A DNA stretch of 64,000 nt from an uncultured virus (IMG/VR IMGVR_UViG_3300033148_002355). Taxonomy: Duplodnaviria > Heunggongvirae > Uroviricota > Caudoviricetes. The position numbers and the translations under genes are program-made. A model generated the notes under the pieces. It was not told where the DNA came from. It saw only the letters and a list, made by a program, of their open reading frames with translations, and did not search any database. Shown in pieces: positions 7 to 63,695 of the stretch. Position 1 is the stretch's first letter, and the number at the start of each line of letters is the position of its first letter. The DNA is taken from the IMG/VR virus record IMGVR_UViG_3300033148_002355; one strand, 5' to 3'.

Positions 7-231
7 TTAGCGAGCATTAAACTCATCTAACCAAACATCTTTTGCTACTGTCCAAGCTGTTGCCCAATCAATATAGGTTTTGGTAATATTCCCTTTATCA
101 TCCTCATAGTCGTGCCATCTACGCCAAACTATTGATAAGTGCATTTTTACAGCTAAAAAATAACGCTCGCTAACATAAGCTATATGTAATGCCTTTTTAG
201 CGAGTTTTGATTGTTTCAGTTTTTTAATCAT
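7..231 (-). CDS. Small hypothetical protein (74 aa, MIKKLKQSK...), translated through an attC-like site arm
   Basis: ORF track 7..276; ATG at 231 follows an A-rich leader. The stop TAA coincides with the GTTA core at 6-9. Confidence 0.7.
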   Translation of the reverse strand: MIKKLKQSKLAKKALHIAYVSERYFLAVKMHLSIVWRRWHDYEDDKGNITKTYIDWATAWTVAKDVWLDEFNAR

Positions 232-299
232 TGTATTTTCTTTTAAGTTAGTGTAGTAATTTATCAAGGTCGGCACTACACATAGCCAAACCGTTAGAG
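168..299. repeat. attC-like palindromic site 1
   Basis: CGCTAAC-ATAA-GCTATATGTAATGCC ... GGCACTACACATAGC-CAAACC-GTTAGAG; 15-bp arms with 2 mismatches that are G:T pairs on the bottom strand. Confidence 0.8.
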
Positions 300-1229: not shown

Positions 1230-1532
1230 AAAGCGGTCCCCTTATATCCTTGATGGTGTCAAGGACTTGGTTTGAGGTTAGTAAACTGTTATACTTCCCC
1301 CGAACTTAGCTTTCTCCAGTATTTGTGTTCCTCACTTATTTCTAAGTAGCCTTGACATTACAGCATTTACACTCATTATTATAGATCAGATGATTAACAT
1401 CAAGTCGAATGTTGCTGGGTAAGCATTGCATCCTCTAACCCTCACTATAACACGCCTGTTACAACTAGTTACGATTCTTTTATTATCCCTTTTGTTAATG
1501 ATGTATGGAAACATGAACACCTGAACCGCCTT
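1230..1532 (-). ncRNA. Candidate ~300-nt structured non-coding RNA or replication-origin transcript
   Basis: No ORF in the track. On the - strand, AAGGCGGTTC (1532-1523) can pair with GGACCGCTTT (1239-1230) and GAGGGTTAG with CTAACCTC; hairpin TCCTTGA/TCAAGGA at 1247-1265. Confidence 0.4.
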
Positions 1533-1554
1533 ATATGTATTAAGATTCAAACAT

Positions 1555-1592
1555 AAAAAAAGCCCTTATATACACGGTATAAGGACTTTTTT
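1555..1592 (-). terminator. Intrinsic terminator-like hairpin, probably part of an attenuator
   Basis: AAAAAAAGCCCTTATA-TACACGG-TATAAGGACTTTTTT. Confidence 0.65.
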
Positions 1593-1658
1593 GTATCAAG
1601 GCTCAAAGAACCTTTCTTTTATGTCTTTAATTCATACCGTGTATACGAATCTTAATAT

Positions 1659-1706
1659 CAAAGATAAAAATAAATATTAAACTCCCAACTATTTTAATTA
1701 AATTTG
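1659..1706. promoter_or_regulatory. Divergent Bacteroidota-type sigma70 promoters
   Basis: - strand TATCTTTG (1666-1659) with TTG about 20 nt upstream; + strand TAAATTTG (1699-1706). Both match the TAnnTTTG -7 consensus. Confidence 0.55.
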
Positions 1707-1757
1707 ATATAGTTAACTAAACATTATATTTTAAAATATTTTAAAACAACAAAGATT

Positions 1758-2285
1758 ATGGGAAATTTTAGAGCACCACTAGTCGTATCAACAACCGCTA
1801 CTGTAGGAACAGCAGCAGCTGTTAATGCTGAAAAGTGTATTCAAATTGAAAAGGGAGGAATTAACGATACAGAGATTTTATTTGTATTTGATTACGACCA
1901 AGTAGACAGTAACGTAGTATGGACATTCGCAACTACAGGTGATAGAGATACTGAGTATGCATTACTAGACGTAGACAGTACTCAATTTAAAGCAGGGGTA
2001 GATGCAGCGTTTGTATCAAGTGCAGCAGCATTAGTTTCTGATCGTACAGGAGCGGCTGTAGTAAACAACCCTTCAATTAACTTAAACAAAGTAACTTCAA
2101 TTGACAGTTTCGATATTGATAACTTTTTAGGAGTAGGTGGTAAATTACTTTACAAGTTAGTGTTCATTTACGAAGGTGTTAACGAACTAAGAGAGTTATC
2201 TTGGAACTATGACAATACAACTGATAGAGATAATACTTACGTAGAACTTACTGCACTAGCAGCAGCTTTACAGTATATCCCATAA
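1758..2285 (+). CDS. Probable virion (decoration/auxiliary capsid) protein with two internal repeats
   Basis: 175 aa; own promoter box and terminator; halves WTFATTGDRDTEYALL and WNYDNTTDRDNTYVEL. Function is inferred. Confidence 0.6.
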   Translation: MGNFRAPLVVSTTATVGTAAAVNAEKCIQIEKGGINDTEILFVFDYDQVDSNVVWTFATTGDRDTEYALLDVDSTQFKAGVDAAFVSSAAALVSDRTGAAVVNNPSINLNKVTSIDSFDIDNFLGVGGKLLYKLVFIYEGVNELRELSWNYDNTTDRDNTYVELTALAAALQYIP

Positions 2286-2304
2286 GCTTAATAACTTATA
2301 GTTT

Positions 2305-2336
2305 AAAAACCCTAAGTTAATAGCTTAGGGTTTTTT
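2305..2336 (+). terminator. Intrinsic (bidirectional) terminator
   Basis: AAAAACCCTAAGT-TAAT-AGCTTAGGGTTTTTT. Confidence 0.8.
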
Positions 2337-2338
2337 AT

Positions 2339-2409
2339 TGTCCTGTGGTGTAATGGTAGCACTACTGTTTTTGGTACAGTTAGTCAAGGTTCGAGTCCTT
2401 GCGGGATAA
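2339..2409 (+). tRNA. tRNA-Gln (anticodon TTG), CCA not encoded
   Basis: Acceptor TGTCCTG/CGGGATA, D arm GTGTAATGGTAGCAC, anticodon stem ACTGT-TTTTGGT-ACAGT, T arm CAAGG-TTCGAGT-CCTTG. Confidence 0.93.
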
Positions 2410-2910
2410 CTAAACAACAAACTTACACCCTACAATATCCAACACTGTTATATCAACACCCTTGGATACTAATACGATTGTAGCGTCAAGCATGTTTTCT
2501 AACTTATAAGCACCAACGCTTTGAGTTTCTGTATTTTTAATGATCCACTTATCTTTTCCTTTTTCAGTTGCCTCAGCGGTATTCCTGCATAATAAAAACG
2601 GTCCTCTTGAATAAACTCTTGTAATAGAACTATCTATTTCAGATTCTATTACAGTTTCAGTAAAACCCGCATATTCTGGAATGAATGGTTCGTCTGCTAG
2701 GTACATACCCTTCGCGTAAGACGCGCCCGCAGTTTTATCATGCTCGGCATTAGAATCTTTAAGTAACTTGATTAGAGGGTTGATTACGTTCCTTATAAGC
2801 TTAGGTACGCTATCGTATCCATTTGATTTTAGTACACTCCCCGTTTTTAATCTTCTTGATGTAGACAGGTCAATTAGTGCCTGTTCTTTTCTGCTTGTTC
2901 CTTTGGACAT
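2410..2910 (-). CDS. Hypothetical protein
   Basis: 166-aa ORF divergent from the terminase. Confidence 0.75.
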   Translation of the reverse strand: MSKGTSRKEQALIDLSTSRRLKTGSVLKSNGYDSVPKLIRNVINPLIKLLKDSNAEHDKTAGASYAKGMYLADEPFIPEYAGFTETVIESEIDSSITRVYSRGPFLLCRNTAEATEKGKDKWIIKNTETQSVGAYKLENMLDATIVLVSKGVDITVLDIVGCKFVV

Positions 2911-11153: not shown

Positions 11154-11969
11154 ATGGCTTTAGAAGAAACAGACGGAGGTAAAACAAATACTCCTCAAGA
11201 AGAAAAGAAGACAGTAGTTGACACTGGTATTACGGCAAAGCAATACAAAGAACAACAATTAGAAATTGCGAAACTGCAAGAGCAGCTTGGTGATTTAATA
11301 AAATTACAAACCACATCCCCTGCGGGAGCTTCTAACACAGACTTAGGCAACGCTGACGCGATGGCTACAGTGATCAAAGCTATCAACGCTAAGAGTGATG
11401 AAGAGAAGTACGGGATAGAGGGTACTGGATATGTCACTGAAGATGACATGGATCCGGAGGATAGATTAGAGATAGGTGAGCATTTTTACTGCCATGCTGG
11501 AGGTTACTTAATTGTTGATGATTTAAGAAATGGAAGACCTGTAGCTACTCCTTTTAGGAATGCTTTAATGTTTACTCCTTTCAAAACAACAAAGACTGGC
11601 TCTGGTAAGGATATGGTTAAAGAGGTTGTGTCAAGATATACTTCTCATAGTAAAAAAGAGGTTGCATGGTTAAAAGATTCTTCTTTTTACGGATGGAAGA
11701 TTTTTGATGATTTACAATCGGCAACAACAGCTCATGGTAAATTAGCTCACGCTATTAACAGAAACTTGACATCTGCTAAAACGATGACTACAGGAACTTT
11801 AGTTGCAGAGTGTAAAGCTTTAGGAATATCGCAAAATACAGATTTAAACAGCATGAGGTTGTTATACGCAACTGCAAAAGCTCAGGCTGAAATAGGTGTG
11901 GCAGAGCAGAAACAATTGTTAAGATCAAGAAATGCTGGAATAGAAGCGCAAATGTTAAAAGAAGCGTAA
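11154..11969 (+). CDS. Hypothetical virion-assembly protein
   Basis: 271-aa ORF directly after the capsid gene. Confidence 0.7.
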   Translation: MALEETDGGKTNTPQEEKKTVVDTGITAKQYKEQQLEIAKLQEQLGDLIKLQTTSPAGASNTDLGNADAMATVIKAINAKSDEEKYGIEGTGYVTEDDMDPEDRLEIGEHFYCHAGGYLIVDDLRNGRPVATPFRNALMFTPFKTTKTGSGKDMVKEVVSRYTSHSKKEVAWLKDSSFYGWKIFDDLQSATTAHGKLAHAINRNLTSAKTMTTGTLVAECKALGISQNTDLNSMRLLYATAKAQAEIGVAEQKQLLRSRNAGIEAQMLKEA

Positions 11970-41589: not shown

Positions 41590-41841
41590 ATGGCGGCAAG
41601 TTTTTCAGGAGTTCAAGTACAGTTTGATATTCCATCAGGTTCGTTCTCAGGAGTTCAAACGCAGTTTGATATTCCATCAGGTTCGTTCTCAGGAGTTCAA
41701 GTACAGTTTGATATCCCGTCAGGTTCGTTTTCAGGAGTTCAAACACAGTTTGATATTCCATCAGGTTCGTTTTCAGGAGTTCAAACACAGTTTGATATTC
41801 CTATTACAGGCTTTGCACAAATCATAACAAGATATATATAA
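41590..41841 (+). CDS. Small tandem-repeat protein, (SFSGVQ[V/T]QFDIPSG) x ~5
   Basis: 83-aa ORF; most differences between repeat units are synonymous in this frame. Confidence 0.7.
   Translation: MAASFSGVQVQFDIPSGSFSGVQTQFDIPSGSFSGVQVQFDIPSGSFSGVQTQFDIPSGSFSGVQTQFDIPITGFAQIITRYI
41599..41802 (+). repeat. 42-bp tandem repeat, ~4.9 copies
   Basis: Unit TCGTTCTCAGGAGTTCAAACGCAGTTTGATATTCCATCAGGT; no spacers. Confidence 0.92.
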
Positions 41842-49333: not shown

Positions 49334-50505
49334 TACATCATAGGCATTAATATAAACTCCTTTTCCTCTACTACTTCACCTTCGACATTATTAGTGTAAC
49401 TGAAAAACAAAGGTTTATTACTTTCCTTATCTCTTCCTATATGGCAGTTTAGAAACTCTGTATTACAACATTGTAAAACACTTTGTAAATACAATGCGTT
49501 AATCCTTACATTAATATCTTCTTTCAACTCCCCGCCTTTAGTTTCATCACTGATTATATCATTAATTTCATCACTGGACCCTAAGTAACTTTCAGACGCT
49601 ACTTCAATACCTTTCAGTCCTGATTTAACCGTTAACGTTAATATCCTACCTCCCGCTTCCTCTACAGCACTTAAGTTACAAACCCTATCTACACTGTCCA
49701 TTAACTCCTTTGGGCTCACTACGAAGTACCCTAACTCCTTTTGATCAAATATCCTATCTACATCAGGGAATTTAATATCAGTAAATAAATCACAAATAAA
49801 CATTGTGCTTTTATTTTTAATAATAATCACATCTTTATCTACGTGTAAGTTAAATGGTCCTTCAAGTTCTACATTAAAGAAACTAGCTATCAGTTGTTTT
49901 TGAATCATTATATCAAACTCTATATCAAATGAGTTGGTAATGTTTTTCATCTCCATTTTAGCTCCATGTGCTGTGCTTAGTGCTTTAATGAATAAACTAT
50001 CCTTTTCTAACTTAAGTGACAAACATGTTAACGCGGGCCTAGTATCATTAGCTTGGATAAAAGAGAGGCTATCTTTTACACTATCAAATATTTTATTATT
50101 AGTTAATGTAGCAAACTGTTCAATCTTTCTAAACTTAGTATCTGGAAATCCATCTTCAGGAACTCCTTCAATTTTCATGTTGCCCTTTTTAGTTTTGATG
50201 TGTAAGGTAACACCTCCAGCCTCCTTTTCTTTAACTCTTAATATAAGGTCTTCTGATTTTATTGACCTAATAGCTCTTAGTAATAAGTCGCAAGGAATAA
50301 GGCATCTAAAGCCGTCTACTGACTCTGCATTCTTAGCTACTGATATTACCTCAGTATTAAGAGAAGTAGTCCTTAAATGAAGGTTATTACCTTTTCCTTC
50401 GATAAGAACATTGTCAATAATAGGTAGTGTTGATTTCTTAGCGACTATTGTACTGCAAGGAATCAATGCTTTAAGTACTGCTATTCTGTTTACTGTGATC
50501 TTCAT
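49333..50505 (-). CDS. dnaN: DNA polymerase III beta sliding clamp homologue
   Basis: MKITVNR...KSTLPIIDNVLI, DTRPALT, FPDVDRI, INALYL and C-terminal ILMPM; 390 aa. Confidence 0.85.
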   Translation of the reverse strand: MKITVNRIAVLKALIPCSTIVAKKSTLPIIDNVLIEGKGNNLHLRTTSLNTEVISVAKNAESVDGFRCLIPCDLLLRAIRSIKSEDLILRVKEKEAGGVTLHIKTKKGNMKIEGVPEDGFPDTKFRKIEQFATLTNNKIFDSVKDSLSFIQANDTRPALTCLSLKLEKDSLFIKALSTAHGAKMEMKNITNSFDIEFDIMIQKQLIASFFNVELEGPFNLHVDKDVIIIKNKSTMFICDLFTDIKFPDVDRIFDQKELGYFVVSPKELMDSVDRVCNLSAVEEAGGRILTLTVKSGLKGIEVASESYLGSSDEINDIISDETKGGELKEDINVRINALYLQSVLQCCNTEFLNCHIGRDKESNKPLFFSYTNNVEGEVVEEKEFILMPMM

Positions 50506-51536
50506 TTCTTTTTCTTTTTTAGTTTTATGTTTTTAAATATGTGTGCTATTACATCTATGGTCCATCCGTTACCTAGCATTTTATATAGTTGTGAGTCAGA
50601 AACTCCGCAGGACAACATAATGTCTATTATGTGCTCTGGTATAGTTTGAAGGCGGGCGCACTCTAAAGGGGTTAATCTCCTTACCCCTTTATCGTTTTTA
50701 ATATAAGGGTCAGTTTTACCGCACTTAGCGTACCTAGCTGTAAGGCAGTAACTTTTTTTCGAGTCTTTATCGTGAGGTTTAAACCGGCCTTTAAAAGCCG
50801 GACTACCGTGAGTAAGCCCGTTTATAAGTTTTTCAGATAAATAGTATTTTTCATCTATTATAACTAAATTATCCTTACCTACAGTAGTTAAACAATTACT
50901 CTTACTATCTTTTCTAACCTCTATACGTTGCTCGGTTTTGCCTGCCATACTATCTACGGTATGGTCTGCTCTTTTACCATCTACAATATAGCGCCCTCTT
51001 TGCGCCCCTATCTTCTCACTCCCGTCCTCCAAAATATCCTTTAACAAAACACCCTTATCTTCCGGTTGTCCTATTCCTGGTATATTAGTCCAGTATAACC
51101 TAACCCTGTTTTGAGCAGAGACTAACGAGCTGTTTATCATTATAGGCTCTACACCCATGTATTTAGATATAATATCTTGACTCTCCTTTTTCATCCTTAC
51201 GTTTTCAAGTAAGAAGTATTTAGGTTGTAATTCCTCTTTAAGTCTAACGAACTCAAAGAATAACTTACTACGTGGATCTTCAAAGTTTAACTGTTTACCT
51301 GCAAATGAGAACCCTTGACAAGGACTGCCTCCTATTAGTAAATCTATATCAGGTAAACCAAAGAAGGTTACGTTCCTAACGTCTCCCAATCTTTTAATGT
51401 TTGGATAAATAGCTTTAGACACTTGCATAGCGTACTTATCTATTTCACTAGCGTAGTAATTATCTACTTTTATCCCCGCCTTTTCTAAAGCCATCATGCC
51501 GCAACTCTTTCCGTCGAATAGTGAAACTACATTCAT
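50502..51536 (-). CDS. DNA (cytosine-5) methyltransferase
   Basis: SLFDG, EID, GGSPCQGFS, LLENV, QNRVRLYW and KMLGNGW motifs; ATG at 51536. Confidence 0.92.
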   Translation of the reverse strand: MNVVSLFDGKSCGMMALEKAGIKVDNYYASEIDKYAMQVSKAIYPNIKRLGDVRNVTFFGLPDIDLLIGGSPCQGFSFAGKQLNFEDPRSKLFFEFVRLKEELQPKYFLLENVRMKKESQDIISKYMGVEPIMINSSLVSAQNRVRLYWTNIPGIGQPEDKGVLLKDILEDGSEKIGAQRGRYIVDGKRADHTVDSMAGKTEQRIEVRKDSKSNCLTTVGKDNLVIIDEKYYLSEKLINGLTHGSPAFKGRFKPHDKDSKKSYCLTARYAKCGKTDPYIKNDKGVRRLTPLECARLQTIPEHIIDIMLSCGVSDSQLYKMLGNGWTIDVIAHIFKNIKLKKKKK

Positions 51537-51537
51537 A

Positions 51538-52308
51538 TCAATATTTAATTTCAGTTTTAATAATTTCAATAGTGTCTTTAGGAAAATCATCTGCTTTACT
51601 AATTACCCATAAAGCATAATCCCTATCATCATACACAGGTTTACCTCTATTTTTACCAAAGTTGTAACATATATTTTCTTTGTCATCTTTGATTAGTTTA
51701 CCTGTACTATCGAAATGGTTGTTCTTATCTCTTAGTTCATCAAAGTAAAAATCTATAATACCTTCAACAGTGTCAGGAATATCTTCTTGCTTAATCATTT
51801 CATCAAGGAGTATCTTAGTTGCTTTAGCGTCGTTGTAAGCATCGTGACTGCCTACTAACTCTTTCCCGGTGTATCTTTGATACATAGCTCCTAACTTCCT
51901 ACTATATATCTTATTAACTAATTTCATCACATCTAAGGTCATTGTTTCTGGTTCCTTATGGAAGTGGCAGTTAGCTTCGTACATCTCTCGTCTAAGCAAA
52001 GGTAAATCGAACCTATCAATGTTGTACCCGCAAACTATGTGAGTACTGATAGCTGCTTTGATAGTAGATGCTACCATATTGAACTTAGGTTCATCTTTAA
52101 CCATTTCATCTGTGATACCGTGTATTTCTGTAGCTTCGGGAGGAATAGGCATACCGGGGTTTACTAACCATGTCCTCTTATCTATTTTCCCGTTAGGCCG
52201 TACACGTATAGCAGCGACTTGAACTATCTTATCAGTTGATATGTTAACTCCAGTAGTTTCTAAGTCGAGCCAAACTAACGTGTTGTTTTCTTGGTTGAAT
52301 TTGTTCAT
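51538..52308 (-). CDS. DEDDh 3'-5' exonuclease (Pol III epsilon-like)
   Basis: DLETTG, GYNIDRFD, HDAYND and C-terminal NFGKNRG. Confidence 0.9.
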   Translation of the reverse strand: MNKFNQENNTLVWLDLETTGVNISTDKIVQVAAIRVRPNGKIDKRTWLVNPGMPIPPEATEIHGITDEMVKDEPKFNMVASTIKAAISTHIVCGYNIDRFDLPLLRREMYEANCHFHKEPETMTLDVMKLVNKIYSRKLGAMYQRYTGKELVGSHDAYNDAKATKILLDEMIKQEDIPDTVEGIIDFYFDELRDKNNHFDSTGKLIKDDKENICYNFGKNRGKPVYDDRDYALWVISKADDFPKDTIEIIKTEIKY

Positions 52309-52309
52309 A

Positions 52310-52765
52310 TTACTTAATTAGCATTACTGTTCCTTTTTTATCTATTTTGATGTTGTGACTTTTAAAGTGTTTATTGAATAACGCTTTAGATTGAGTGTTA
52401 AGCTTTTTCTTAGCTGCATCAAAGTCTTTATACTTCTCAGGGTTTTTAAGATACTCATCATTCCCTTCCGCTGGATAAACTACATCTTTGATAAGTTTAT
52501 CCCTAAGCACTTTTAATTTAGCATCGTATGCATCTTTTACTGATTTAGGAATAACTCCATACCTGTACGCTAATTTAATATCTGGAGTAATATACTCTTT
52601 GTGTAACCGTTTGACTTGTGCGTAAGTTTCATTATCAACTGTTCCTTTTTTAAGGAAGTCACTGTATAGTTTTTCAACTATAAGAGGAGCGTCTTGAGCT
52701 TCTAAGTCAACTGATATTTCTCCCTTTTTCTTTTCCGCTTTTAACGGTTTCTTTTTCTTTGCCAT
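52310..52765 (-). CDS. Hypothetical basic protein
   Basis: 151-aa ORF. Confidence 0.7.
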   Translation of the reverse strand: MAKKKKPLKAEKKKGEISVDLEAQDAPLIVEKLYSDFLKKGTVDNETYAQVKRLHKEYITPDIKLAYRYGVIPKSVKDAYDAKLKVLRDKLIKDVVYPAEGNDEYLKNPEKYKDFDAAKKKLNTQSKALFNKHFKSHNIKIDKKGTVMLIK

Positions 52766-52791
52766 TGTTTATTTATTTATTTAGTTATTAG

Positions 52792-53238
52792 TTAAAATCT
52801 TAAATCTTCATTTCCTCCTCCCATAGTCCTATAAATCAAATTATCTATATGTTCACTATGAGTTGACTTCTTATTTGTACCTGTATCAATTAACGTTTGA
52901 TTCCCTTGAGTTACTAAAGGTATCCTATGTCCTCCTTCTCCGTATATCGTTCCATCTATTATATCTTCACATACCAACTTAGTTATCTTTTCAAATACAT
53001 CGTTCAATCCGTTCATTTTAGATGTTACTAAAACATATATTATAATCTCACTTAACAACTCTGAAGCTTTGACTATATTTCTGTCTTGGTTAAAGTATAT
53101 ATAATTTTCAATAAGGTCCTCCATCTTCTCTCGAAACTCTTGTAATTTAACATCATTTAAGATAACTGGTTTTCTAGGTATTTCATGATTACCTAATATC
53201 TCTGCTATTGTCCTGATTTTTTTATCTAATGACTTCAT
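52792..53238 (-). CDS. Hypothetical protein (possible degenerate MazG-like fold)
   Basis: 148 aa, helical; weak resemblance only. Confidence 0.55.
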   Translation of the reverse strand: MKSLDKKIRTIAEILGNHEIPRKPVILNDVKLQEFREKMEDLIENYIYFNQDRNIVKASELLSEIIIYVLVTSKMNGLNDVFEKITKLVCEDIIDGTIYGEGGHRIPLVTQGNQTLIDTGTNKKSTHSEHIDNLIYRTMGGGNEDLRF

Positions 53239-55049
53239 ACTTTTTGAAATCTACTGGTTATACTTTCTTTGATATTGTTCTTCTTCTCGTAATCTTGTAT
53301 AAGCGACTTGAATAGTTTCTTCTCCAGGTTCCCATATTCTACTATCCCTGCTTTCTTGTGATCTATAGCTGAGTTAATATCATCTGTTTTACTTTCAATA
53401 AGGTTATATATCCTCTGGTCAATACTATCTGGTATCATTGTATACATTACCTCTACATCTTTAGTTTGCCCCATTCTGTGAGCCCTTTTATATGGTTGCT
53501 CTAATAAATCGGGGGTGAATCCCATATCCATAAACACTACCTTACGAGCATTAACTAAGTTAATACCAATACCTGCAGCTATAACTTGACCTAAGAACAC
53601 TTGTACCTCTGTACGTTGCTTAAACTTATCAATACGGTTCCTTCTTTTAAGACTACTAACACTTCCATCAATAAGAACAGCTGTATTACCTAACTCATCT
53701 TTTAATTGATTAAGTACAGTTTTAAAGAAACTGAACACTATAACCTTTTCTCCTTCCCTGTTAAGCTTTCTGATTAACTTGAGGACATCAGGTATTTTAG
53801 ATTCACTACAAAGCCTGTTAAGAGTCATTATGTTACCTCTACTCTTCATTGAAGCTTTCCTTTTAGTACTCCTCAAGTAAACTAATCTCTCTGTGTTTCT
53901 AGTACCTGTCCCTATTTTGTTTTTAATCCTATGTTCTACTTCTTTAATTTCAGCAGTTACCTCTGCAAGTAGCTTCTGAGCGTCATACATCTCTTTTATA
54001 GCCTCTTGGTACTTCTTTGTACTCTTATCATTCATTTCGAAGTAGTAGCTCTTAATAACGAGCTTAGGTAAGTCTAACTCTTCTTCTGATTTCTTTCTAA
54101 GCATCCAGTTGGATAACTTTAATCTAAAGTCTTCTACATTCTTAATACCTGTAACTTTTTGACCGTTCCCTTTAGCGTACCTTCTTTTGAAGTCTGTAAA
54201 GTTTTTACCCATTGGGTGTTTGCTTAAGTGTAGTAAAGCGAATATATCAGTTATTCTGTTCTTGATAGGTGTGCCTGTTAAGAAGGTAACTCTTGCTTTA
54301 GGATACTTGTTCAAAAGCTTCCTAACTTGCTTGAACTTATCTGTACCCTTATTTTTTATATAATGAGCTTCATCTATGATAATGTGATCGATTGGGGACT
54401 TGGTTATATGCTTGATGTACTTCTCTACACTTTCATAGTTAACTATTACAAATGACTCTTTCATTACACTGAACATGCATTTATTCCTGTCAAGCAAAGT
54501 AAAGAATAAAGGGTTAAATCCCCACTCTTCTGTAAGGTCTGTATACCAGTTCCATTTAGTTAATGAAGGGCAAATGATTACTGTACGTTTTAAGTTGAAT
54601 AGTTTAGTAAGTGAAGCAGCGAATAGTGTTTTACCTAATCCTTGTTCAAATGCACATAAGTTGAATTGTCTATTTCTGAAGGACCATAAAGCAGCAGCTT
54701 GATACTTCATTAGTTTCTTTGGATCACCTTCCTTGTCAAATAGTCCTTCGTATAAAGTCGCGGGAGAATACTTAGCTACAAATTCTTTAGCATCTTTTAA
54801 GTATATCCTTTTAATAAGATCAACAAATACTTTCTTCTTATCTACATTGAACTTATTGTCCATTAAGTTACGATCAACGTACTTAACGTATTTAAGTAAT
54901 GCTTCTTTACACGTTATACGAATATCTACAACTACCTTTCCTTTGTCTTTGACAGTCATATCAAGACATTCAGCCGTTAACAGCTCCTCGTCTGAGAAGT
55001 GTTTTTGGAACAAGAGCCTCTTGTCGTCTTTACTTAACGTTATCTTCAT
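53235..55049 (-). CDS. SNF2-family helicase/annealase
   Basis: FEQGLGKT, IIDEAH, LTGTPIKN, GIGINL and KRAHRMGQ. Confidence 0.9.
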   Translation of the reverse strand: MKITLSKDDKRLLFQKHFSDEELLTAECLDMTVKDKGKVVVDIRITCKEALLKYVKYVDRNLMDNKFNVDKKKVFVDLIKRIYLKDAKEFVAKYSPATLYEGLFDKEGDPKKLMKYQAAALWSFRNRQFNLCAFEQGLGKTLFAASLTKLFNLKRTVIICPSLTKWNWYTDLTEEWGFNPLFFTLLDRNKCMFSVMKESFVIVNYESVEKYIKHITKSPIDHIIIDEAHYIKNKGTDKFKQVRKLLNKYPKARVTFLTGTPIKNRITDIFALLHLSKHPMGKNFTDFKRRYAKGNGQKVTGIKNVEDFRLKLSNWMLRKKSEEELDLPKLVIKSYYFEMNDKSTKKYQEAIKEMYDAQKLLAEVTAEIKEVEHRIKNKIGTGTRNTERLVYLRSTKRKASMKSRGNIMTLNRLCSESKIPDVLKLIRKLNREGEKVIVFSFFKTVLNQLKDELGNTAVLIDGSVSSLKRRNRIDKFKQRTEVQVFLGQVIAAGIGINLVNARKVVFMDMGFTPDLLEQPYKRAHRMGQTKDVEVMYTMIPDSIDQRIYNLIESKTDDINSAIDHKKAGIVEYGNLEKKLFKSLIQDYEKKNNIKESITSRFQKV

Positions 55050-55071
55050 TTCTGTTTTCTGTTGTCTTAAT

Positions 55072-55129
55072 GGTTAACTAATTTTAAAAACAATTTCGTT
55101 CCTCAACAATTTTTACTATTGCGTTATAA
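55072..55129. repeat. attC-like site (short, degenerate)
   Basis: GGTTAAC...TAAAAA...TTTTTAC-TATTGC-GTTATAA; right end matches ATTGCGTTA at the window start. Confidence 0.5.
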
Positions 55130-55384
55130 AACATCTGTTTGTTTACTCCTTTCAAAACCGTCACAACCTAAGCATTGTGATTCACACCTAACCCCTCCAA
55201 CTTCTTCATTAGAGCAAACAAACGATTTCATAACATCAGGTATATTTAAATTTTTCAACTCTGTCCATGCGTGAGCATAAGCTTGTGATTTTCCATCACT
55301 TCTGCCTTTTTGGTATTCACTACTATCATCCCTTGGTGTATTAGCACCTTTTTTAAATACTTCTAAAATTTCGTTAATATTCAT
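55124..55384 (-). CDS. Hypothetical protein translated through an attC-like arm
   Basis: 86 aa; KNLNIPDVMKS is encoded by the site arm; the stop lies in the GTTA core. Confidence 0.7.
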   Translation of the reverse strand: MNINEILEVFKKGANTPRDDSSEYQKGRSDGKSQAYAHAWTELKNLNIPDVMKSFVCSNEEVGGVRCESQCLGCDGFERSKQTDVL

Positions 55385-55433
55385 CTGTGTAAATTTATTC
55401 GTTAAAAATCAAAACATACCTGCAACATTACCT
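55228..55433. repeat. attC-like site with mutated core (ATT instead of GTT)
   Basis: TCATAAC-AT-CAGGTATATTTAAATTTTTCAAC ... GTTAAAAATCAAAACATACCTG-CAAC-ATTACCT. Confidence 0.75.
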
Positions 55434-55455
55434 ACAAGTGCTAAGTCGGTAGGTA

Positions 55456-56034
55456 CTAATAATGTTTCTTCTTAAATTCTTCTGCCATTATATCCTGCAT
55501 ATTACCTTTGTAATATCGTGCTGTTTCAGGGTTACTAATTTCATATATCCCTGAACCCATGTTTGGTATGATTAATCCACAAGTAAGAAAATCAAAACAT
55601 AAAGCTATGTTTTCTTCTCGTATTAAAAACTCTTCTTTAGTTAACCTAAGCATTTCATCTACGTTATCGCACATTTGAATATACTCATCATATTTTTCGG
55701 TTATGGCTTCCAATTTCTCAGAGGTAATACATTCTTTAATGTCAGGATATTTTTTGATAGCTTCTATTGTTTTGACCCAATAACTACCTATGCGCTCTCT
55801 ATCTCTATTTAGTCTATCCATTTCATAAGCCATAAAATGCTTATCGTCCTCCATTTGTTGTTTAAATCTTAGTGCAGGTGTGTCAGTTTCAAACGAAACA
55901 AACTCATTATTCACTATCCAATTTTTATCATCAATCTTTGTGATGTTATTTTTATATTCGCTTTTACTACTTAATGTTTTTGAGAAGCTCCATCCCATTA
56001 AGCCAAATAATCCTATCATCAATATTATTTCCAT
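55456..56034 (-). CDS. Membrane-anchored hypothetical protein (cassette gene)
   Basis: 192 aa with N-terminal TM; bounded by ATTACCTAC (55427) and GTAGGTAAC (56069-56077). Confidence 0.7.
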   Translation of the reverse strand: MEIILMIGLFGLMGWSFSKTLSSKSEYKNNITKIDDKNWIVNNEFVSFETDTPALRFKQQMEDDKHFMAYEMDRLNRDRERIGSYWVKTIEAIKKYPDIKECITSEKLEAITEKYDEYIQMCDNVDEMLRLTKEEFLIREENIALCFDFLTCGLIIPNMGSGIYEISNPETARYYKGNMQDIMAEEFKKKHY

Positions 56035-56070
56035 TTTCTTAATTTAATCAGTTTATAAATCCGCACCAGT

Positions 56071-56135
56071 AGGTAACACTATCTATATGCAAAACTCCGT
56101 TGCACTACGTTCAGCACATAGCCAAACCGTTAACT
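56071..56135. repeat. attC-like site (short, 65 bp)
   Basis: AGGTAAC-ACTAT-CTATATGCAAAAC ... GTTCAGCACATAG-CCAAACC-GTTAACT; shares CACATAGCCAAACCGTTA with site 1. Confidence 0.8.
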
Positions 56136-56358
56136 ACTTCTCTATAATCTCAATCAAAGTAAGTGTGTCAGGATCGCATAACATGGCTAATGGCTGACCT
56201 TTAATATGCACTTGCATTTTACCGTTAACCATATCTTTATTGTGATGTGTTATTCCTACTTTACCAGTGTAGGTTTTTACTTTGAATCCGGTACTACCAA
56301 CTCTAAAGTTGTGATCTAAGTACCAAGCGTTTGGATTTGTCTCTTCTGTTATTTTCAT
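56134..56358 (-). CDS. Hypothetical protein
   Basis: 74-aa ORF ending at the site core. Confidence 0.65.
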   Translation of the reverse strand: MKITEETNPNAWYLDHNFRVGSTGFKVKTYTGKVGITHHNKDMVNGKMQVHIKGQPLAMLCDPDTLTLIEIIEK

Positions 56359-56371
56359 AATATTTGTGAAT

Positions 56372-57814
56372 CTAATTATTTATAAACGCTTCTGCAAACC
56401 GAACCTCAGCATCCCCGTTCGCATTCCAATCTACCATCTCTATAAATAACTGATACCCTTTCTTTTCTATGAACTTTAATACTTTACTAAAAGTTTCTTT
56501 ATCGAATAAACTACCATCTTTAATGAATATACATTTAAGGTTAGGATTCATAGCAATTGCTAGTTGTACTCCTACTCTGATAATAACACTGCTAGGATGA
56601 TGGTCCCCGTTAAAAGGTAATCCTTCAAAGTAAACTCCTTCTTCATCAAATGATAATCCTTTAACTGGTAAGGTACTCGTTTCAAAAGACTTTTGCTTTT
56701 CTAATACGATAGCTTTTAAACGTTTGGTTAACTTGTTAGCTTTAGCTTCTTGTTTAGTCACCTCAGCGTGTTTAGTAACTACATCTTGGATTTTAGTATA
56801 CATCGCTGTGTATTGTACTAGTTCAGTTTGTTTATCTCTTAGCTTATCTACGTCAGGTTCTTCATTCTTTTCAATCCAAGCTTTTACTTTAACTATCTGT
56901 TCTGCTGAAGCTTTACCTCTGACCTGAATAAGGTCATGATCATGCATCCTGTTTTTAAGGTCCAGAAGAAACCTCTCATTGTCTTCTCCTAAGGCTTTAG
57001 CTTTATCTAAAACGATTCTATAATACTTAGTTAACTCCCTTGATTTGTCGCCTTCTAAAATACCTGTTTGATGTTCAGTTAATGCTGTTCTTGCCTTGTT
57101 ATACTTGACAACACCGTCAACCATATTCAAAAGCTTATTATTAACCTCTGTGAGCTCTTTACTCTTGTCTTCAGTATACTTCTTTACATCCTCTTCTTTA
57201 ATGTCTGTAGCACTGCTTAAATTAGCTTTTAAGGTTTTGATGGTTCTGTTAAGTTCAGTTCTTTCATCACGTTTTTCCTTATTCTCATTATCCAAATCTT
57301 CAAGTAATTGTTTTTCATCATCTGTTAAAAATTGTCTTAATACTTCTACTTGTTCTTTTAAACCTGCTTGACTTACTTTACCACTACTTGTTAAACCTAA
57401 CCTTATAAACTCATCAACATCGAAACTAACGTCTCCTATGATGTCACGTTGCATTGATTTAGTTTTAATCTTGTTACCTTCTTCATCTACTACTGTAACA
57501 CTCCCTTTTTGATTGCTTTCAGTAAAGTTCATTATGTATTGGAAAGTCTTTTGTTCTCCATCTAAGTCACCTTTGATAACTAGTTTAACGTGTGCTGACT
57601 CTTCTCCTTTTTTGATTGCTTTAGAAGGGACTGCTTCGCTATTTATCGGGGATTGTATAGCTCTAAGAACAGTAGATTTACTACCCCCGTTCTTTCCTAC
57701 TACAACTATACTCTTTCCTTGTATATCAATTACCTTACTAGATAATGATTGAAAGTTCTTTAACTCTGCTGAAATGATTTTCATTCCTGTCTCTTTTCTG
57801 TTTAACTCGCTCAT
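56372..57814 (-). CDS. SMC/RecF-like AAA ATPase with coiled coil
   Basis: ELKNFQSL, Walker A variant GKNGGSKST, central coiled coil, IFIKDGSLFD and QLFIE. Confidence 0.8.
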   Translation of the reverse strand: MSELNRKETGMKIISAELKNFQSLSSKVIDIQGKSIVVVGKNGGSKSTVLRAIQSPINSEAVPSKAIKKGEESAHVKLVIKGDLDGEQKTFQYIMNFTESNQKGSVTVVDEEGNKIKTKSMQRDIIGDVSFDVDEFIRLGLTSSGKVSQAGLKEQVEVLRQFLTDDEKQLLEDLDNENKEKRDERTELNRTIKTLKANLSSATDIKEEDVKKYTEDKSKELTEVNNKLLNMVDGVVKYNKARTALTEHQTGILEGDKSRELTKYYRIVLDKAKALGEDNERFLLDLKNRMHDHDLIQVRGKASAEQIVKVKAWIEKNEEPDVDKLRDKQTELVQYTAMYTKIQDVVTKHAEVTKQEAKANKLTKRLKAIVLEKQKSFETSTLPVKGLSFDEEGVYFEGLPFNGDHHPSSVIIRVGVQLAIAMNPNLKCIFIKDGSLFDKETFSKVLKFIEKKGYQLFIEMVDWNANGDAEVRFAEAFINN

Positions 57815-57829
57815 TTGTCTGTTTGCTTT

Positions 57830-58024
57830 TTAGTTTTTGTTTTTTATATATACTACTGCTTTACCTTTTATTGCTAAATCGTATATCATTTTCCTTTGAT
57901 AGTCACGTAGGTTTAAAGGATGCCTGAATCCGTCTTCACTGAGTACGCAGGTGTATTTCTGTACAAAGTAAAGAAGATCATTTTGACACTTATCTAACTC
58001 TTCGTTTAGTTCTTGTTCTGTCAT
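57830..58024 (-). CDS. Small protein resembling a terminase N-terminal fragment
   Basis: ELDKCQNDLLYFVQKY...PLNLRDYQRKMI resembles the N-terminus of T4-like TerL. Confidence 0.5.
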   Translation of the reverse strand: MTEQELNEELDKCQNDLLYFVQKYTCVLSEDGFRHPLNLRDYQRKMIYDLAIKGKAVVYIKNKN

Positions 58025-58377
58025 GATTTAGTTTTAAATACTTCATCCCAAGTTTTAGGATACTTTTGATTTAATATTTGTTTCTTCAACTCTTTCTCTG
58101 CTTGTGACATCTTGGCTCCAGTAGCTCCTATTGATCTTGGTTTGTAAACTAAGTTTTTGAAACTTTTAACCCAACCCATATAATCTTCCCACTCTCTTAT
58201 GTTAAGGTTCCAAACCTTCTCAATATACAATCCGGACATCTTACCATCTAATCCAAACTCACCATAACCGCAACGAGTCATCCCTATCTCTTTCATTTCA
58301 ATAAGGCGCTTTCTGGTTCTGTCGTTATTTAGAGTAGAGCTGTAATAGGTTTTGTCTTCTATATTTATTTCACTCAT
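58021..58377 (-). CDS. Hypothetical protein
   Basis: 118 aa; coupled. Confidence 0.65.
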   Translation of the reverse strand: MSEINIEDKTYYSSTLNNDRTRKRLIEMKEIGMTRCGYGEFGLDGKMSGLYIEKVWNLNIREWEDYMGWVKSFKNLVYKPRSIGATGAKMSQAEKELKKQILNQKYPKTWDEVFKTKS

Positions 58378-58565
58378 TTATCTTTTATTTTTCCTGTTTT
58401 ACATTTTGTCATATCAAGAGTTACGAATCTAAGATTACCTTGCTTAGCTTCTTCTTTTAAACACTTAATGTAGTTATCTTGAATCTCTTTCGCTGTGGGA
58501 TTGATAGTGTACTCTTTAGTAACTAACTTCTCTCCGTCGTGGTATGCAATAGTCCCTTTGCTCAT
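58374..58565 (-). CDS. Hypothetical protein
   Basis: 63 aa; coupled. Confidence 0.6.
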   Translation of the reverse strand: MSKGTIAYHDGEKLVTKEYTINPTAKEIQDNYIKCLKEEAKQGNLRFVTLDMTKCKTGKIKDK

Positions 58566-58567
58566 AT

Positions 58568-59614
58568 TTACTTCTTTTTACTTTTTTCTACAAACTCTTC
58601 CCTATCCTTTTTTTGTTTACAAAACTTAGCAACACTACAATAAAACTTACACTTAAACCCTACATCTATTCTAAACTCTATTTTAGGGTTAGTTAACTTA
58701 GCTTTGTTATCTTCTATATACTGTTCGGCACTTGCTTTACTGTAACATATTTTAGCAGCATTCTTCCTAGTTTCAGACATGACAGCAAAAGCATCTGGTT
58801 TAGCCCATCTTTCTGTATAAGAACATAATGGTAACTTTTTCCTTTGACTTGCTTCGTAGTGTAACTTAACACGTTGCTTAATATACTCTTCACATTCTTC
58901 CGGGGACCAAACTCTTAACTCTATAATTTTAAACACTGAGTCAGGGTATTTATTAGCTTTCTTATTAGGGTTCATAATGTAGTTCATCTTACCCCAGTTT
59001 CTGAACATAGCAAGTATTTCAATCTTCTCCACTTCACAACCAATAGCTCTTAACATGTGAGCGTATATGTTTTGTTGACGTTCCCAATCTATATGTTCGT
59101 CTTCACCATACTTATTAACATTACATACTTTATAATCTCTTAACAGTTTTTCGGGAGCATTATAATAATCTTGAGTACCACTAACTCGGTAAGTGTATTC
59201 TTTATCATCAACTTCGCTTACCTGGGTAATATCTAATGTTAAAGTTCTTTCAGAAAATATAGTCTTACCTACTTGTTCATCAGGGAATCCTTTCTTAGCT
59301 GCTAAACCTATTTGTTTTGCCAAATCGGGGAGACCCATCCTTTTCAAAGCAGCGTGAGCAAACTTTAACGTTTCATAATCTCTATGAGTATAAGTAGCAC
59401 TTTCCATCAAACTATGAAACGCTGTACCTAACATCATAAACACATGATCGTTAACATCTTCTTCCACTTCGTTAGCATCCTTTAACATACGTACTCTAGG
59501 AGACCCTATTAAAGTAGTTACTGATATATCACCTTTAGTAACGTGATCGTCGAAACAAGCAGCTTTGTATAGTTCTGCAGGTGCTCCGTATTTGTTTGTT
59601 ATTTTAACGCTCAT
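58568..59614 (-). CDS. PD-(D/E)xK Cas4-like exonuclease
   Basis: ISVTTLI, GTAFH, GTQD...RDYK, QQNIY and C-terminal CKFYCSVAKFC; ATG at 59614. Confidence 0.8.
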   Translation of the reverse strand: MSVKITNKYGAPAELYKAACFDDHVTKGDISVTTLIGSPRVRMLKDANEVEEDVNDHVFMMLGTAFHSLMESATYTHRDYETLKFAHAALKRMGLPDLAKQIGLAAKKGFPDEQVGKTIFSERTLTLDITQVSEVDDKEYTYRVSGTQDYYNAPEKLLRDYKVCNVNKYGEDEHIDWERQQNIYAHMLRAIGCEVEKIEILAMFRNWGKMNYIMNPNKKANKYPDSVFKIIELRVWSPEECEEYIKQRVKLHYEASQRKKLPLCSYTERWAKPDAFAVMSETRKNAAKICYSKASAEQYIEDNKAKLTNPKIEFRIDVGFKCKFYCSVAKFCKQKKDREEFVEKSKKK

Positions 59615-62937: not shown

Positions 62938-63414
62938 TTAATATCTTACTCCTGTTTCTAAAAAATCATATTCATTAACTTCTAAACTTTCCTTAATACA
63001 TTCATCACTCATTAAGTATTCATACTCTTTTTGTAGCATATTAATATACTGTAACCCTATACTATCTTTAAACATCCTGATAGTACCTTCTTTTTGCTCT
63101 AAACCTTTCATTACTCTCTCTCTCACTTGTTTCTCAAAACATTTAGCAGTGATATACGTTTGACATTCTTTCCCGTGCTCTGTCAATATTGTATTAACAA
63201 TTTCATCAATAGGCTTATTTAGTACTATTTCAATCTCTCGCCTGTCAATGTCAAAACTTTTAATTGTTGCACCTATATTCTCCATATCATCATAGATGCA
63301 ATTCCACCACTCGCAGTATTCTACGTTAAAATATCTGTTATCTTCAATTGCTTTCTCTTGTGCTTCCTTGCTTAGTTCCTTGAACTTGTAAAGGTTTAAT
63401 TTGATTGTTTTCAT
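62938..63414 (-). CDS. Hypothetical early protein (MKTIKLNLYKFKELSKEAQEKAIE...NEYDFLETG)
   Basis: 158 aa, acidic; pattern common among small early phage proteins. Confidence 0.75.
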   Translation of the reverse strand: MKTIKLNLYKFKELSKEAQEKAIEDNRYFNVEYCEWWNCIYDDMENIGATIKSFDIDRREIEIVLNKPIDEIVNTILTEHGKECQTYITAKCFEKQVRERVMKGLEQKEGTIRMFKDSIGLQYINMLQKEYEYLMSDECIKESLEVNEYDFLETGVRY

Positions 63415-63645
63415 AGCTTCTATTGATTTTTATTTGTAGTTATGTGTATTTATTGGTTTTTAAAATTCTCCTACTGTTACATTAACTGTTATCTCTTCGC
63501 CTTCCTCCGTGCAACTAGTCCAAGTAAAAACAACTTGTTCGCTGTTCGCTCCTATTCCTTGTTTCATGTATTCAAGGTCGCTTTGTGTAAAGTTTAATTT
63601 GATTGTTTTCATAGCTTCTATTGATTTTTATTTGTGGTTATGTGT
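63394..63645. repeat. 54-bp direct repeat (63394-63447 and 63592-63645)
   Basis: GTTTAATTTGATTGTTTTCATAGCTTCTATTGATTTTTATTTGT[A/G]GTTATGTGT; one mismatch. Confidence 0.9.
63460..63612 (-). CDS. Small hypothetical protein (50 aa, MKTIKLNFTQ...; not in track)
   Basis: Hand-translated; shares its start region with the downstream gene. Confidence 0.65.
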   Translation of the reverse strand: MKTIKLNFTQSDLEYMKQGIGANSEQVVFTWTSCTEEGEEITVNVTVGEF

Positions 63646-63695
63646 GTTTGTATACTTGTATGTAAAAAAAGTGCTTAGAGTCCTTTAAAATAAGT

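Follow-up and report, generated by a model that had tools for sequence, protein, structure and literature searches.

In integrons, a circular cassette carries one complete recombination site (attC), and integration splits this site between the G and the TT of its core; the inverse core has the consensus RYYYAAC, and extrahelical bases in the inner stem of attC mark the strand that recombines. The pdif sites are 28-bp duplex sites in alternating orientation, moved by Xer recombinases supplied in trans, and the fast turnover of small genes in lytic phages is mostly ascribed to illegitimate or relaxed homologous recombination. CALINs, which are attC clusters that lack an integron integrase, have been recognised in phages; the portion of Qi et al. 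2023 (PMC9892861) drawn on here reports them in 17 of 10,705 phage genomes, one of which belongs to a virulent marine phage of Polaribacter, gives the 7-base core as GTTRRRY, and states that 5 of 6 tested sites recombined with attI1 under IntI1. In T4-type phages, promoter early stem-loops (PeSL) are composite promoter-terminator signals, and the associated shuffling is ascribed to homologous recombination in the portions of PMC2839356 and PMC4122927 drawn on here. The subject of this analysis is a set of palindromic sites and small genes, termed array 2, at positions 55072-56135 of the window; the window is the whole 64,000-nt stretch that was analysed, taken from the uncultured virus record IMGVR_UViG_3300033148_002355, and it represents 64 kb of a phage genome of ~71 kb (~35% G+C).

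Array 2 consisted of two small genes, encoding 192 and 86 aa, and three sites, forming a 1.07-kb block that was absent from two relatives. Judging from sequence comparison, these are probably two cassettes of an integron-like system, which would be shared by marine Bacteroidota phages and Bacteroidota chromosomes and would exchange its cassettes at GTT. The sites belonged to a family with a conserved hairpin; the flanks of cognate sites were complementary, relatives displayed empty sites, and breakpoints fell at the cores. The order on the minus strand was AAA_23 ATPase, 74-aa open reading frame (ORF), spacer, 192-aa ORF, spacer, 86-aa ORF, spacer and SNF2 helicase. An earlier, sequence-only reading had placed three sites between the helicase and ATPase genes, and all three were recovered, with positions agreeing to within 2-3 bases. 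The only close relatives found were G001 (comprising L001-L005), a complete IMG/VR contig of 71,693 bp with terminal repeats, collinear with the window at ~75% nucleotide identity, and L012, a 9-kb metagenome contig. The features of the locus were as follows:

56372-57814, minus strand: AAA_23 (SMC/RecF-like) ATPase gene of the replication module, upstream of the array (PF13476, E 7.5e-07; PHROG 1499, E 6e-44); also present in G001 and L012.
56134-56358, minus strand: conserved 74-aa ORF, with homologues directly before the helicase in G001 (L001 5759-5977) and L012; its stop codon TAG abuts site 3.
55073-55080 (right copy) and 56129-56136 (left copy): GTTAACTA, an 8-bp direct repeat at the edges of the insert, with 7 copies in 64 kb, two of them at the junctions.
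56133->56073, minus strand: site 3, TAAC-GGTTT-GGCTATGTG-loop-CATATAGAT-AG(T)-GTTA, carrying the 17/18-mer of the site family.
55456-56034, minus strand: 192-aa cargo gene; the modelled product has an N-terminal hydrophobic helix and a helical domain (AlphaFold2, predicted local distance difference test score 82.9).
55427-55455, minus strand: hairpin TACCTAC-N13-GTAGGTA, after the stop codon of the 192-aa gene and running into the 5' core TAAT of site 2.
55430->55231, minus strand: site 2, TAAT-GTTG-CAGGTATG ... TATACCTG-AT-GTTA, from a descriptor scan, with an 8-bp stem and 0 mismatches; it encloses the start of the 86-aa ORF.
55124-55384, minus strand: 86-aa ORF, from the ORF list; the start codon falls within site 2, and the TAA stop contributes to the 5' core of site 1.
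55127->55075, minus strand: site 1, TAAC-GCAA-TAGTAAAAATTG-loop(TGAGGAACGA)-TTTTTAAAATTA-GTTA, with the family loop motif TGAGGAACGA.
53235-55049, minus strand: SNF2-family helicase gene, downstream of the array (PF00176, E 1e-22; PF00271; PHROG 62).

Comparison by blastn placed window positions 52791-55068 and 56141-56884 on adjoining segments of G001, leaving 55069-56140 unmatched. G001 had ~10 nt in place of the latter, and its 72-aa homologue of the 74-aa ORF was followed by 23 nt and then by the helicase start. The L012 junction comprised the stop codon, a 20-nt spacer holding GTTAAC once, and the ATG. The empty site that the sequence-only reading had proposed to seek in relatives lacking the insert was thereby found, as an uninterrupted junction in both genomes, and indels between close relatives were bounded by the motifs, both at these empty sites and where metagenome contigs broke at site ends (see below). 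Since GTTAAC was frequent in the window (45 copies, mostly coding), it was no marker by itself. The amino acid identity of the helicase to that of the window was 78% for G001 (best tblastn segment) and 84% for L012; global alignment of the first 404 residues gave 84.4% for window and L012, 74.8% for window and G001, and 75.0% for G001 and L012. As the L012 helicase was nearer to that of the window than was that of G001, gain of the block in the lineage of the window is the more parsimonious history; the ATPase gene gave no resolution of the order of the three. Among cultured phages, blastn with window 52000-59000 gave no match, and tblastn with the helicase identified only relatives below 30% identity.

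A separate, clean insertion with respect to G001 was the gene for a C-5 cytosine DNA methyltransferase (50502-51590, minus strand; PF00145, E 1e-44), window 50505-51545 being without a counterpart between G001 31369 and 31359. This insert had no spacers and overlapped the ends of its neighbours, which apparently reflects another mode of gene gain than that of array 2.

The 17-mer AACGGTTTGGCTATGTG occurred exactly in 65 IMG/VR loci, where a handful were expected by chance according to our own arithmetic, and the 18-mer shared between the two arrays of the window (see below) was the conserved 5' half of this family. Each member was an imperfect palindrome laid out as (T/C)AAC, spacer, 9-bp box, variable loop, complementary box, spacer and GTT(A/G). 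Sequences upstream of the motif were unrelated between loci; conservation began at (T/C)AACGG, extended to CATATAGCY-nn(T)-GTTA, and then ended. Within these limits TAAC paired with GTTA, and GGCTATGTG with CATATAGCY, leaving the GGTTT and nn(T) spacers unpaired between them. Types B and C, to which site 3 conformed, had a short stem and the loop GAGGNACGAG between the conserved blocks. Type A carried an 80-nt insert with a small hairpin, a start codon and ~18 codons, as in the copy at 297->170 in array 1 of the window, and across the family the variable top ranged from a 10-nt loop to >100 nt. The succession of outer stem, unpaired spacer, inner stem and variable top (~20 to >100 nt), conserved in structure, is that of attC.

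A covariance model (R1) was built from 21 compact copies. Of its 87 matches in the 1.5-kb flanks of the 65 loci, many formed arrays on one strand, with 2-4 sites at intervals of 150-900 nt. Two copies only were detected in the window (site 3 and one in array 1) and one in the locus L013; R1 found none in G001, L012 or L014-L016. Over 79 distinct aligned rows, 94.3% of cells were paired compared with 84.8% in shuffles, and both sides had changed in 109 cells compared with 25. Compensatory changes were present in 9 of 16 pairs, while controls with slid partners showed 17-60% pairing. Pair types varied within the inner stem (for example, C-G 63, A-U 6 and G-C 5), a pattern that seems hard to obtain otherwise than by conservation of the hairpin. 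The core pairs were A-U in 78, A-U in 77 and C-G in 74 of the 79 copies, corresponding to the AAC/GTT outer stem of attC. The 9-bp box of the main family had no bulges and two conserved G.T/G.U positions. E-value scans of 55000-56400 and of a bacterial copy against Rfam gave noise only; the motif string did not occur in the literature searched, and blastn with site 3 against cultured phage records, including the published CALIN phages, produced no match at E<=1.

In 20 distinct type A loci, nucleotide conservation was confined to ~125 nt, from TAACGG to ...CATATAGgTGgTGTTA. The enclosed ORF began with M-x(8-13)-KALHI(G/A)xV and continued for 45-75 codons that were unrelated between loci, remaining open in 20 of 21 loci when the window copy was counted. 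Conservation of the peptide simply follows from that of the 3' half-site, and the variable parts behave as cassettes translated in frame from a start codon that the site provides. A similar arrangement, with the start codon enclosed, was present in site 2 and its counterpart in L013.

The 17-mer was also present in species-representative genomes, in at least 121 loci (~220 estimated, with ~70 expected by chance from our own arithmetic); those matches in the G+C-rich coding sequence of Proteobacteria look like chance. A 3' half-site occurred within 170 nt of the 17-mer in 50 of the 121 loci listed. Most of these were a ~190-nt variant, whose conservation was at least 90% in 17 loci of Prolixibacteraceae, Draconibacterium, Saprospiraceae, Melioribacteraceae and others; neither flank was related between these loci. 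For 10 of 12 such loci, the variant ran antisense to the gene on either side. Among phage contigs, a same-strand ORF started within 133 nt downstream of 50 of 54 copies (10 of 54 in the mirror control). The opposite orientations in phage and bacteria argue against a common RNA role on the sense strand, and for a role at the DNA level. Genes neighbouring the bacterial copies were of an accessory or defence kind (TIR, Fic, AbiC-like, AAA_15/21, PIN and group II intron reverse transcriptase), and one copy (L120) lay beside a tyrosine recombinase and an IS91-type Y2 transposase; it scored only 15 bits with R1 (E 0.13). As a separate observation, the ~190-nt element, TAACGG ... CATATAGCTTTTGTTA (L116, L118, L120 and others), was spread over several Bacteroidota families and one Melioribacteraceae genome, and one Draconibacterium chromosome contained at least three copies.

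Within the window, the exact 18-mer CACATAGCCAAACCGTTA was located at 279-296 and 56115-56132, as the sequence-only reading had noticed. The tool expected 0.02 chance matches; yet 24 of 200 random 1084-nt chunks of the window shared an exact stretch of at least 18 nt with the rest of the window, and the array 2 region had 21 shared 12-mers against a chunk mean of 23.35. An exact 19-mer was also common to 55140-55158, within the 86-aa ORF, and to 11569-11587, within an unrelated plus strand gene, on opposite coding strands. This 19-mer was taken as chance, such that an exact 18-19-mer by itself is weak evidence in this genome, and it is the comparative evidence that establishes the reality of the sites. 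Site 3 scored 79 bits with R1 (E 9.5e-18), as a training member of that model, and metagenome contigs matched it only over 56074-56131/2, with unrelated flanks.

Sites 1 and 2 were accepted as diverged members of the family, with site 2 the less certain. Site 1 was a discrete repeat in four metagenome runs, ending sharply at 55075 and at 55125/6; in run X1 its summed depth was 105, compared with 8.9 in its flanks. A further locus, L220, had the stems of site 1 with another loop, and both displayed three unpaired A on the 3' side, as judged by eye. An exact 19-mer of site 1 occurred at three IMG/VR loci only, two of these apparently chance matches in coding sequence. The layout of site 2 was repeated at L013 649-846, the 5' part being 87% identical over 39 nt to window 55418-55382. 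There the box was different but still complementary (GACTATGT / ATATAGAC, with one mismatch, by eye), and the TACCTAC-N13-GTAGGTA hairpin was conserved, reading GTAGGTAAC.

At the left end of the window, array 1 consisted of four small minus strand ORFs with sites between them, including:

170-297, minus strand: type A site of array 1, with the 18-mer at its 5' end and all pairs formed (R1 39.7 bits, E 2.3e-07).

Its 80-nt insert held the ATG of ORF 231-7. The window itself began inside a site (TAACGCAAT, 9->1) that resembled the 5' half of site 1. The region 1-1229, which contains array 1 and the left end, had no nucleotide match in G001, and arrays 1 and 2 showed no extended homology beyond shared 18-, 13- and 12-mers.

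The ends that the sequence-only reading gave for the 192-aa cassette, ATTACCTACAAGTGC (55427-55441) and GCACCAGTAGGTAAC (56063-56077), were complementary at 12 of 15 positions, as it described. It also proposed that the A at 55427 was a point mutation that may have immobilised the cassette. This base, an A on the plus strand, does depart from the consensus, making the 5' core of site 2 TAAT instead of TAAC on the gene strand; of the 79 rows, 74 had C-G at the corresponding pair, 2 had U-G and 2 were unpaired there, and L013 had G at the equivalent plus-sense position (C on the gene strand). With the 3' core, the changed base can still form a G.T wobble. TAAT cores were found at two other L013 sites and at one site of L054, and CAAT in L027; this recurrence in other arrays weakens the idea of an immobilising mutation on its own terms, under which an A common among active sites of the family would count against it.

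The cargo gene of the first cassette belonged to a family with 26 homologues at 43-86% identity from marine metagenomes. The N-terminus was hydrophobic in 27 family members and the model placed a helix at residues 2-21, which fits the earlier call of a putative membrane protein. There was no match to a fold in the PDB at E<=0.001; the 74-, 192- and 86-aa ORFs had no Pfam or PHROG match, and the homologue search for the 86-aa ORF returned one partial homologue only.

Were a circular cassette split at G|TT, its first bases should be able to pair with the 5' core region of its own site downstream. In 13 array loci, the 14 nt that follow GTT(A/G) in one site were compared with the 14 nt preceding (T/C)AAC in the next, the latter as reverse complement. 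A match at 8 or more of the 14 positions was obtained in 12 of 23 adjacent pairs, typically as 5-6 contiguous bases beside the core (for example, GTTAGGCAC and GTGCCTAAC), and among pairs up to 375 nt apart the proportion was 11 of 12. Only 7.1% of 1190 non-cognate pairs reached eight matches (mean 4.6, sd 1.9), so that binomial P was 1e-8 for 12 of 23 and 3e-12 for 11 of 12. The two flanks of a given site did not match each other. In both close pairs with a GTTG 3' core, the next 5' core was CAAC, which indicates that the fourth base moves together with the downstream cassette. The pattern is illustrated by three successive cassettes of L013: GTTA-GCGGT/ACCGC-TAAT, GTTA-GCAAA/TTTGC-TAAT and GTTA-CCTAC/GTAGG-TAAC. 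In array 1 of the window, the 3' core and its extension, GTTAGCGAGC (176->167), matched GCTCGCTAAC (19->10) at 10 of 10 positions. The 192-aa cassette opened with TTACCTAC (56076->56069), which pairs with GTAGGTAA where the 5' core of site 2 begins to be read; this pair corresponds to the complementary ends that the sequence-only reading had noticed. The agreement was modest for the second cassette of array 2 (GTTA-TGAAAT against the complement GTTA-TAAAAC, 4 of 6). The cassette start thus paired with the 5' core region of the downstream site, placing a boundary at G|TT as in attC; we know of no regulatory or homologous-recombination process that yields such complementarity.

Four IMG/VR contigs carried a gene of the 192-aa family within runs of small same-strand ORFs. 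In L013, this gene together with 53 nt upstream and 28 nt downstream was 83% identical in nucleotide sequence to window 56087-55428, in an otherwise unrelated context, and the cassette delimited by the sequence-only reading (55427-56077) agreed with this block to within 10 nt. Natural populations were examined through Logan contigs from four marine runs of four studies, compared with window 54700-56500. These are contigs and not raw reads, such that a form absent from them constitutes no evidence; none bridged the insert or covered 55427. The helicase side (54700-55104/55125) had 0 differences in three runs, and the ATPase side (56117/9-56500, or 56128-56500 in the fourth run) had 0-2 differences in all four. 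Contigs stopped or diverged at 55075, 55125/6, 56074 and 56131/2, where different sequences were joined; in run X3, a 15.6-kb contig was identical through site 1 and had other sequence from 55125. These breaks at the cores indicate that near-identical phages carry other DNA at this locus. The suggestion that cassettes can land in several loci was supported by the 192-aa cassette in another array and by the other sequence joined at cores; it was qualified by the L013 block, which ended at a 5' core.

If the integron-like interpretation is correct, the short outer stem of each site, (T/C)AAC / GTT(A/G), would be R-like and the 9-bp inner stem L-like; an unpaired spacer separates the two, and the top is variable. 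A cassette would be exchanged as a unit via strand exchange inside the GTT of the 3' core, and its first bases would pair with those before AAC of its own 3' site, as in a closed circular cassette. The two-cassette block would have entered, or would be exchanged at, the GTTAAC between the 74-aa and helicase genes, and the natural population would hold different cassettes at that position. Strand exchange at G|TT, a circular intermediate and an enzyme acting on the sites are presumed from this pattern. Since the window encodes none, the enzyme is probably a tyrosine recombinase from the host or from a co-infecting element. Two Xer-like recombinases of 270-278 aa, with 44% mutual identity, were encoded 1-3 kb from arrays (L014 6063-6899 and L083 1156-1968) and are candidate enzymes for the sites.

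Several results weigh against this interpretation. The first concern the sites themselves: R1 missed sites 1 and 2, and a loose descriptor (TAAY-stem8-GTTA) was not enriched in the window (12 occurrences, against 5-19, mean 13.1, in 20 shuffles), so that both sites needed the other support given above. Single-stranded DNA folds of the three sites, on both strands, had z of -0.97 to +0.62 relative to shuffles, for which reason no claim of an unusually stable hairpin is made for the window copies. The pairing figures for the family lean towards structure because the alignment was fitted to the model. The full 7-base core consensus was absent, the next bases being variable (for example, GTTACCT, GTTATAT and GTTAGGC), and complementarity was shown by just 1 of 11 pairs separated by more than 375 nt, probably because undetected sites intervene. 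The homology between the window and L013 started at least 10 nt upstream of GTTA and extended only as far as the 5' core of the site downstream; at least one breakpoint of that cassette therefore lay elsewhere than at G|TT, and a strict integron cassette would run through the downstream site, unlike this block.

The remaining points concern the enzyme. No tyrosine recombinase (PF00589) was present among the 67 window ORFs scanned, with ~7 kb of the phage lying outside the window. PF00589 was found in 3 of 30 viral records bearing the element or cargo, and in 2 of the 11 that were at least 90% complete. The three proteins were Xer-like, falling below all NCBIfam cut-offs and matching the integron-integrase model in split pieces only. 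No element lay within 20 kb of three true intI genes. G001 likewise had no tyrosine recombinase. Integron integrases above cut-off were encoded by 3 of 16 element-bearing bacterial genomes and by 0 of 14 controls. A link of the sites with IntI was looked for through these searches and did not emerge, given the lack of PF00589 among the scanned window ORFs and of elements near the three intI genes. The original view of the array as cassettes was upheld as regards insertion, a palindromic family, cassette logic and portability; no integrase was found among the window ORFs.

A possible, though less probable, alternative is a cassette-exchange system in its own right, parallel to integrons and independent of IntI, occurring in crAss-like and other marine Bacteroidota phages and in host chromosomes. 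Recombination at G|TT would then be performed by a small Xer-like enzyme, by the host Xer or by an unrecognised enzyme, and the class comprising type A and site 2 would double as an expression adaptor, the site donating a ribosome-binding region, a start codon and a leader of 15-50 codons in frame to cassettes without their own. If true, such a system would enable rapid exchange of accessory or anti-defence genes among the lytic phages of a population.

An explanation considered unlikely is that the sites are regulatory inter-cistronic hairpins that act as portable homology, the small genes being shuffled by ordinary or relaxed homologous recombination in the manner of PeSL. The elements did lie between co-oriented small ORFs, as the 50 of 54 phage copies with a same-strand ORF within 133 nt attest; G.U-compatible pairs were frequent on the sense strand, type A enclosed a start codon, and many type B copies can form an alternative hairpin with a T-run, by eye. 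The breakpoint between the window and L013 upstream of the 192-aa gene was inside the element and not at GTT, and the window encodes an exonuclease and an SMC-like ATPase, with no integrase found. However, crossing-over inside the elements predicts no complementarity between the flanks of successive sites, G001 lacked any copy, which would be odd for a core regulatory signal, and the bacterial variant was antisense to its neighbours in 10 of 12 loci. Nor was any sigma-70-like promoter or terminator-like site present in the three sites on the gene strand, in a scan that leaves Bacteroidota promoter types uncovered; sigma-70-like sites in the region numbered 6, with 6.7 expected. The early transcripts of phi14:2, a phage with no known early promoters, are without a common upstream motif in the portion of 10.1101/2020.03.07.982082 drawn on here. 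Separately, the 17-mer was considered as the -33/-7 promoter boxes of Bacteroidota and rejected, because both spacing and sequence misfit (by eye).

Non-autonomous palindromic elements, similar to miniature inverted-repeat transposable elements or to repetitive extragenic palindromes, are a somewhat less likely explanation still; these would be mobilised by a transposase in trans, with the neighbouring genes as bystanders. Discrete units with unrelated flanks on both sides, the conservation of the ~190-nt variant (at least 90%) across genera, the high depth of site 1 as a repeat node in metagenomes, and the L120 copy beside a recombinase and an IS91-type transposase are all in keeping with it. 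It predicts a relationship between the flanks of one element, whereas complementarity was seen across the intervening gene. Moreover, in 20 of 21 loci the type A ORF ran on for another 45-75 codons without interruption, a transposase was near only 1 of 12 bacterial loci, and that copy, L120, scored just 15 bits with R1.

It is improbable that the sites are cis-acting mRNA structures governing the translation or stability of downstream small genes, with gene turnover as unrelated mosaicism. Compensatory stem changes, the wobble-compatible positions that favour the sense strand, and the start codons enclosed by type A and site 2 agree with such a role; but no Rfam family was matched, orientation was reversed in the bacterial loci, and empty sites, flank complementarity and core breakpoints are left unexplained. 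Finally, ordinary AT-rich intergenic DNA with fortuitous short repeats would be compatible with the 24 of 200 chunks that shared an 18-mer, the unraised 12-mers, the unenriched descriptor and the shuffle-like folds, and can be dismissed as very improbable, being contradicted by 65 contigs with the 17-mer and extended conservation, covariation, flank complementarity and breakpoints at cores.

The phage containing array 2 had its structural genes on the plus strand at 2941-43943 and its replication module on the minus strand from 44023 onwards. Its crAss-like marks were a match to the Crassvirus muzzle protein (59.6 bits), a weak match to a tail-ring protein and an ORF of 2770 aa. Other features were observed along the window. 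A tRNA-Gln gene (anticodon TTG; 2339-2410, plus strand) stood between the left-end small genes and the structural module, and was the only match of the Rfam scan at gathering threshold. A stretch of 609 nt (1149-1757) between divergent genes was free of ORFs and had no Rfam match at that threshold; window 1230-2337 was 71% identical to G001 8110-7002, and the stretch may be a non-coding RNA or control region. The ORF at 41590-41841 contained four tandem 42-nt repeats (41602-41811; 83-100% identity). A 61-nt direct repeat of 95% identity, at 63391-63451 and 63589-63649 (spacing 198 nt), covered the starts of two small minus strand ORFs, which suggests a recent duplication of a small gene start.

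The sites of array 2 constitute a family defined by sequence and conserved in structure, with the geometry of site-specific cassette exchange, and here they lie amid the replication genes of a crAss-like phage. Should the recombination prove real, the principle of the integron would extend to marine phage lineages that are abundant and lack IntI; the sites would then provide a handle for cataloguing the cassette cargo of phages, which is likely to be rich in host-takeover and anti-defence genes, as well as a directly testable substrate. If it is not, the family is still an undescribed and widely conserved hairpin of Bacteroidota and their phages.

In comparison with known systems, the arrays are like dif/pdif modules in that recombination sites delimit gene modules whose ends form inverted repeats, the recombinase would be supplied in trans, and small Xer-like recombinases lie near a few arrays; they are unlike pdif in having hairpin-forming palindromes of 55-200 nt in direct orientation. 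As with PeSL, to judge from the portions of those papers drawn on, short conserved stem-loops flank small variable ORFs, and relatives differ there by insertion, deletion or replacement; unlike PeSL as portrayed in the same portions, no promoter or terminator consensus was seen in the sites (sigma-70 scan), and flank complementarity points to exchange at a fixed core. A literature search on attC and CALINs in Bacteroidota gave nothing relevant among the matches listed. The sites differ from integron attC in conserving only four bases per core, in an inner stem (the 17-mer) that is nearly invariant across many phages and several Bacteroidota families, and in that some include a start codon together with 15-50 codons of the ORF downstream; orientation relative to genes is also reversed between phage and bacterial copies, and no element lay beside the three intI genes. 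They resemble the CALINs of PMC9892861, as far as the portion drawn on describes these, in having small, mostly uncharacterised cargo of an accessory or defence-like kind in lytic marine phages without an integrase. With integron attC and CALIN arrays they share same-strand arrangement, one small ORF per site, and a palindrome AAC...GTT with spacer, inner stem and variable top; and, as in integrons, each cassette begins with bases that can pair with the 5' core region of its own 3' site, implying exchange at G|TT.

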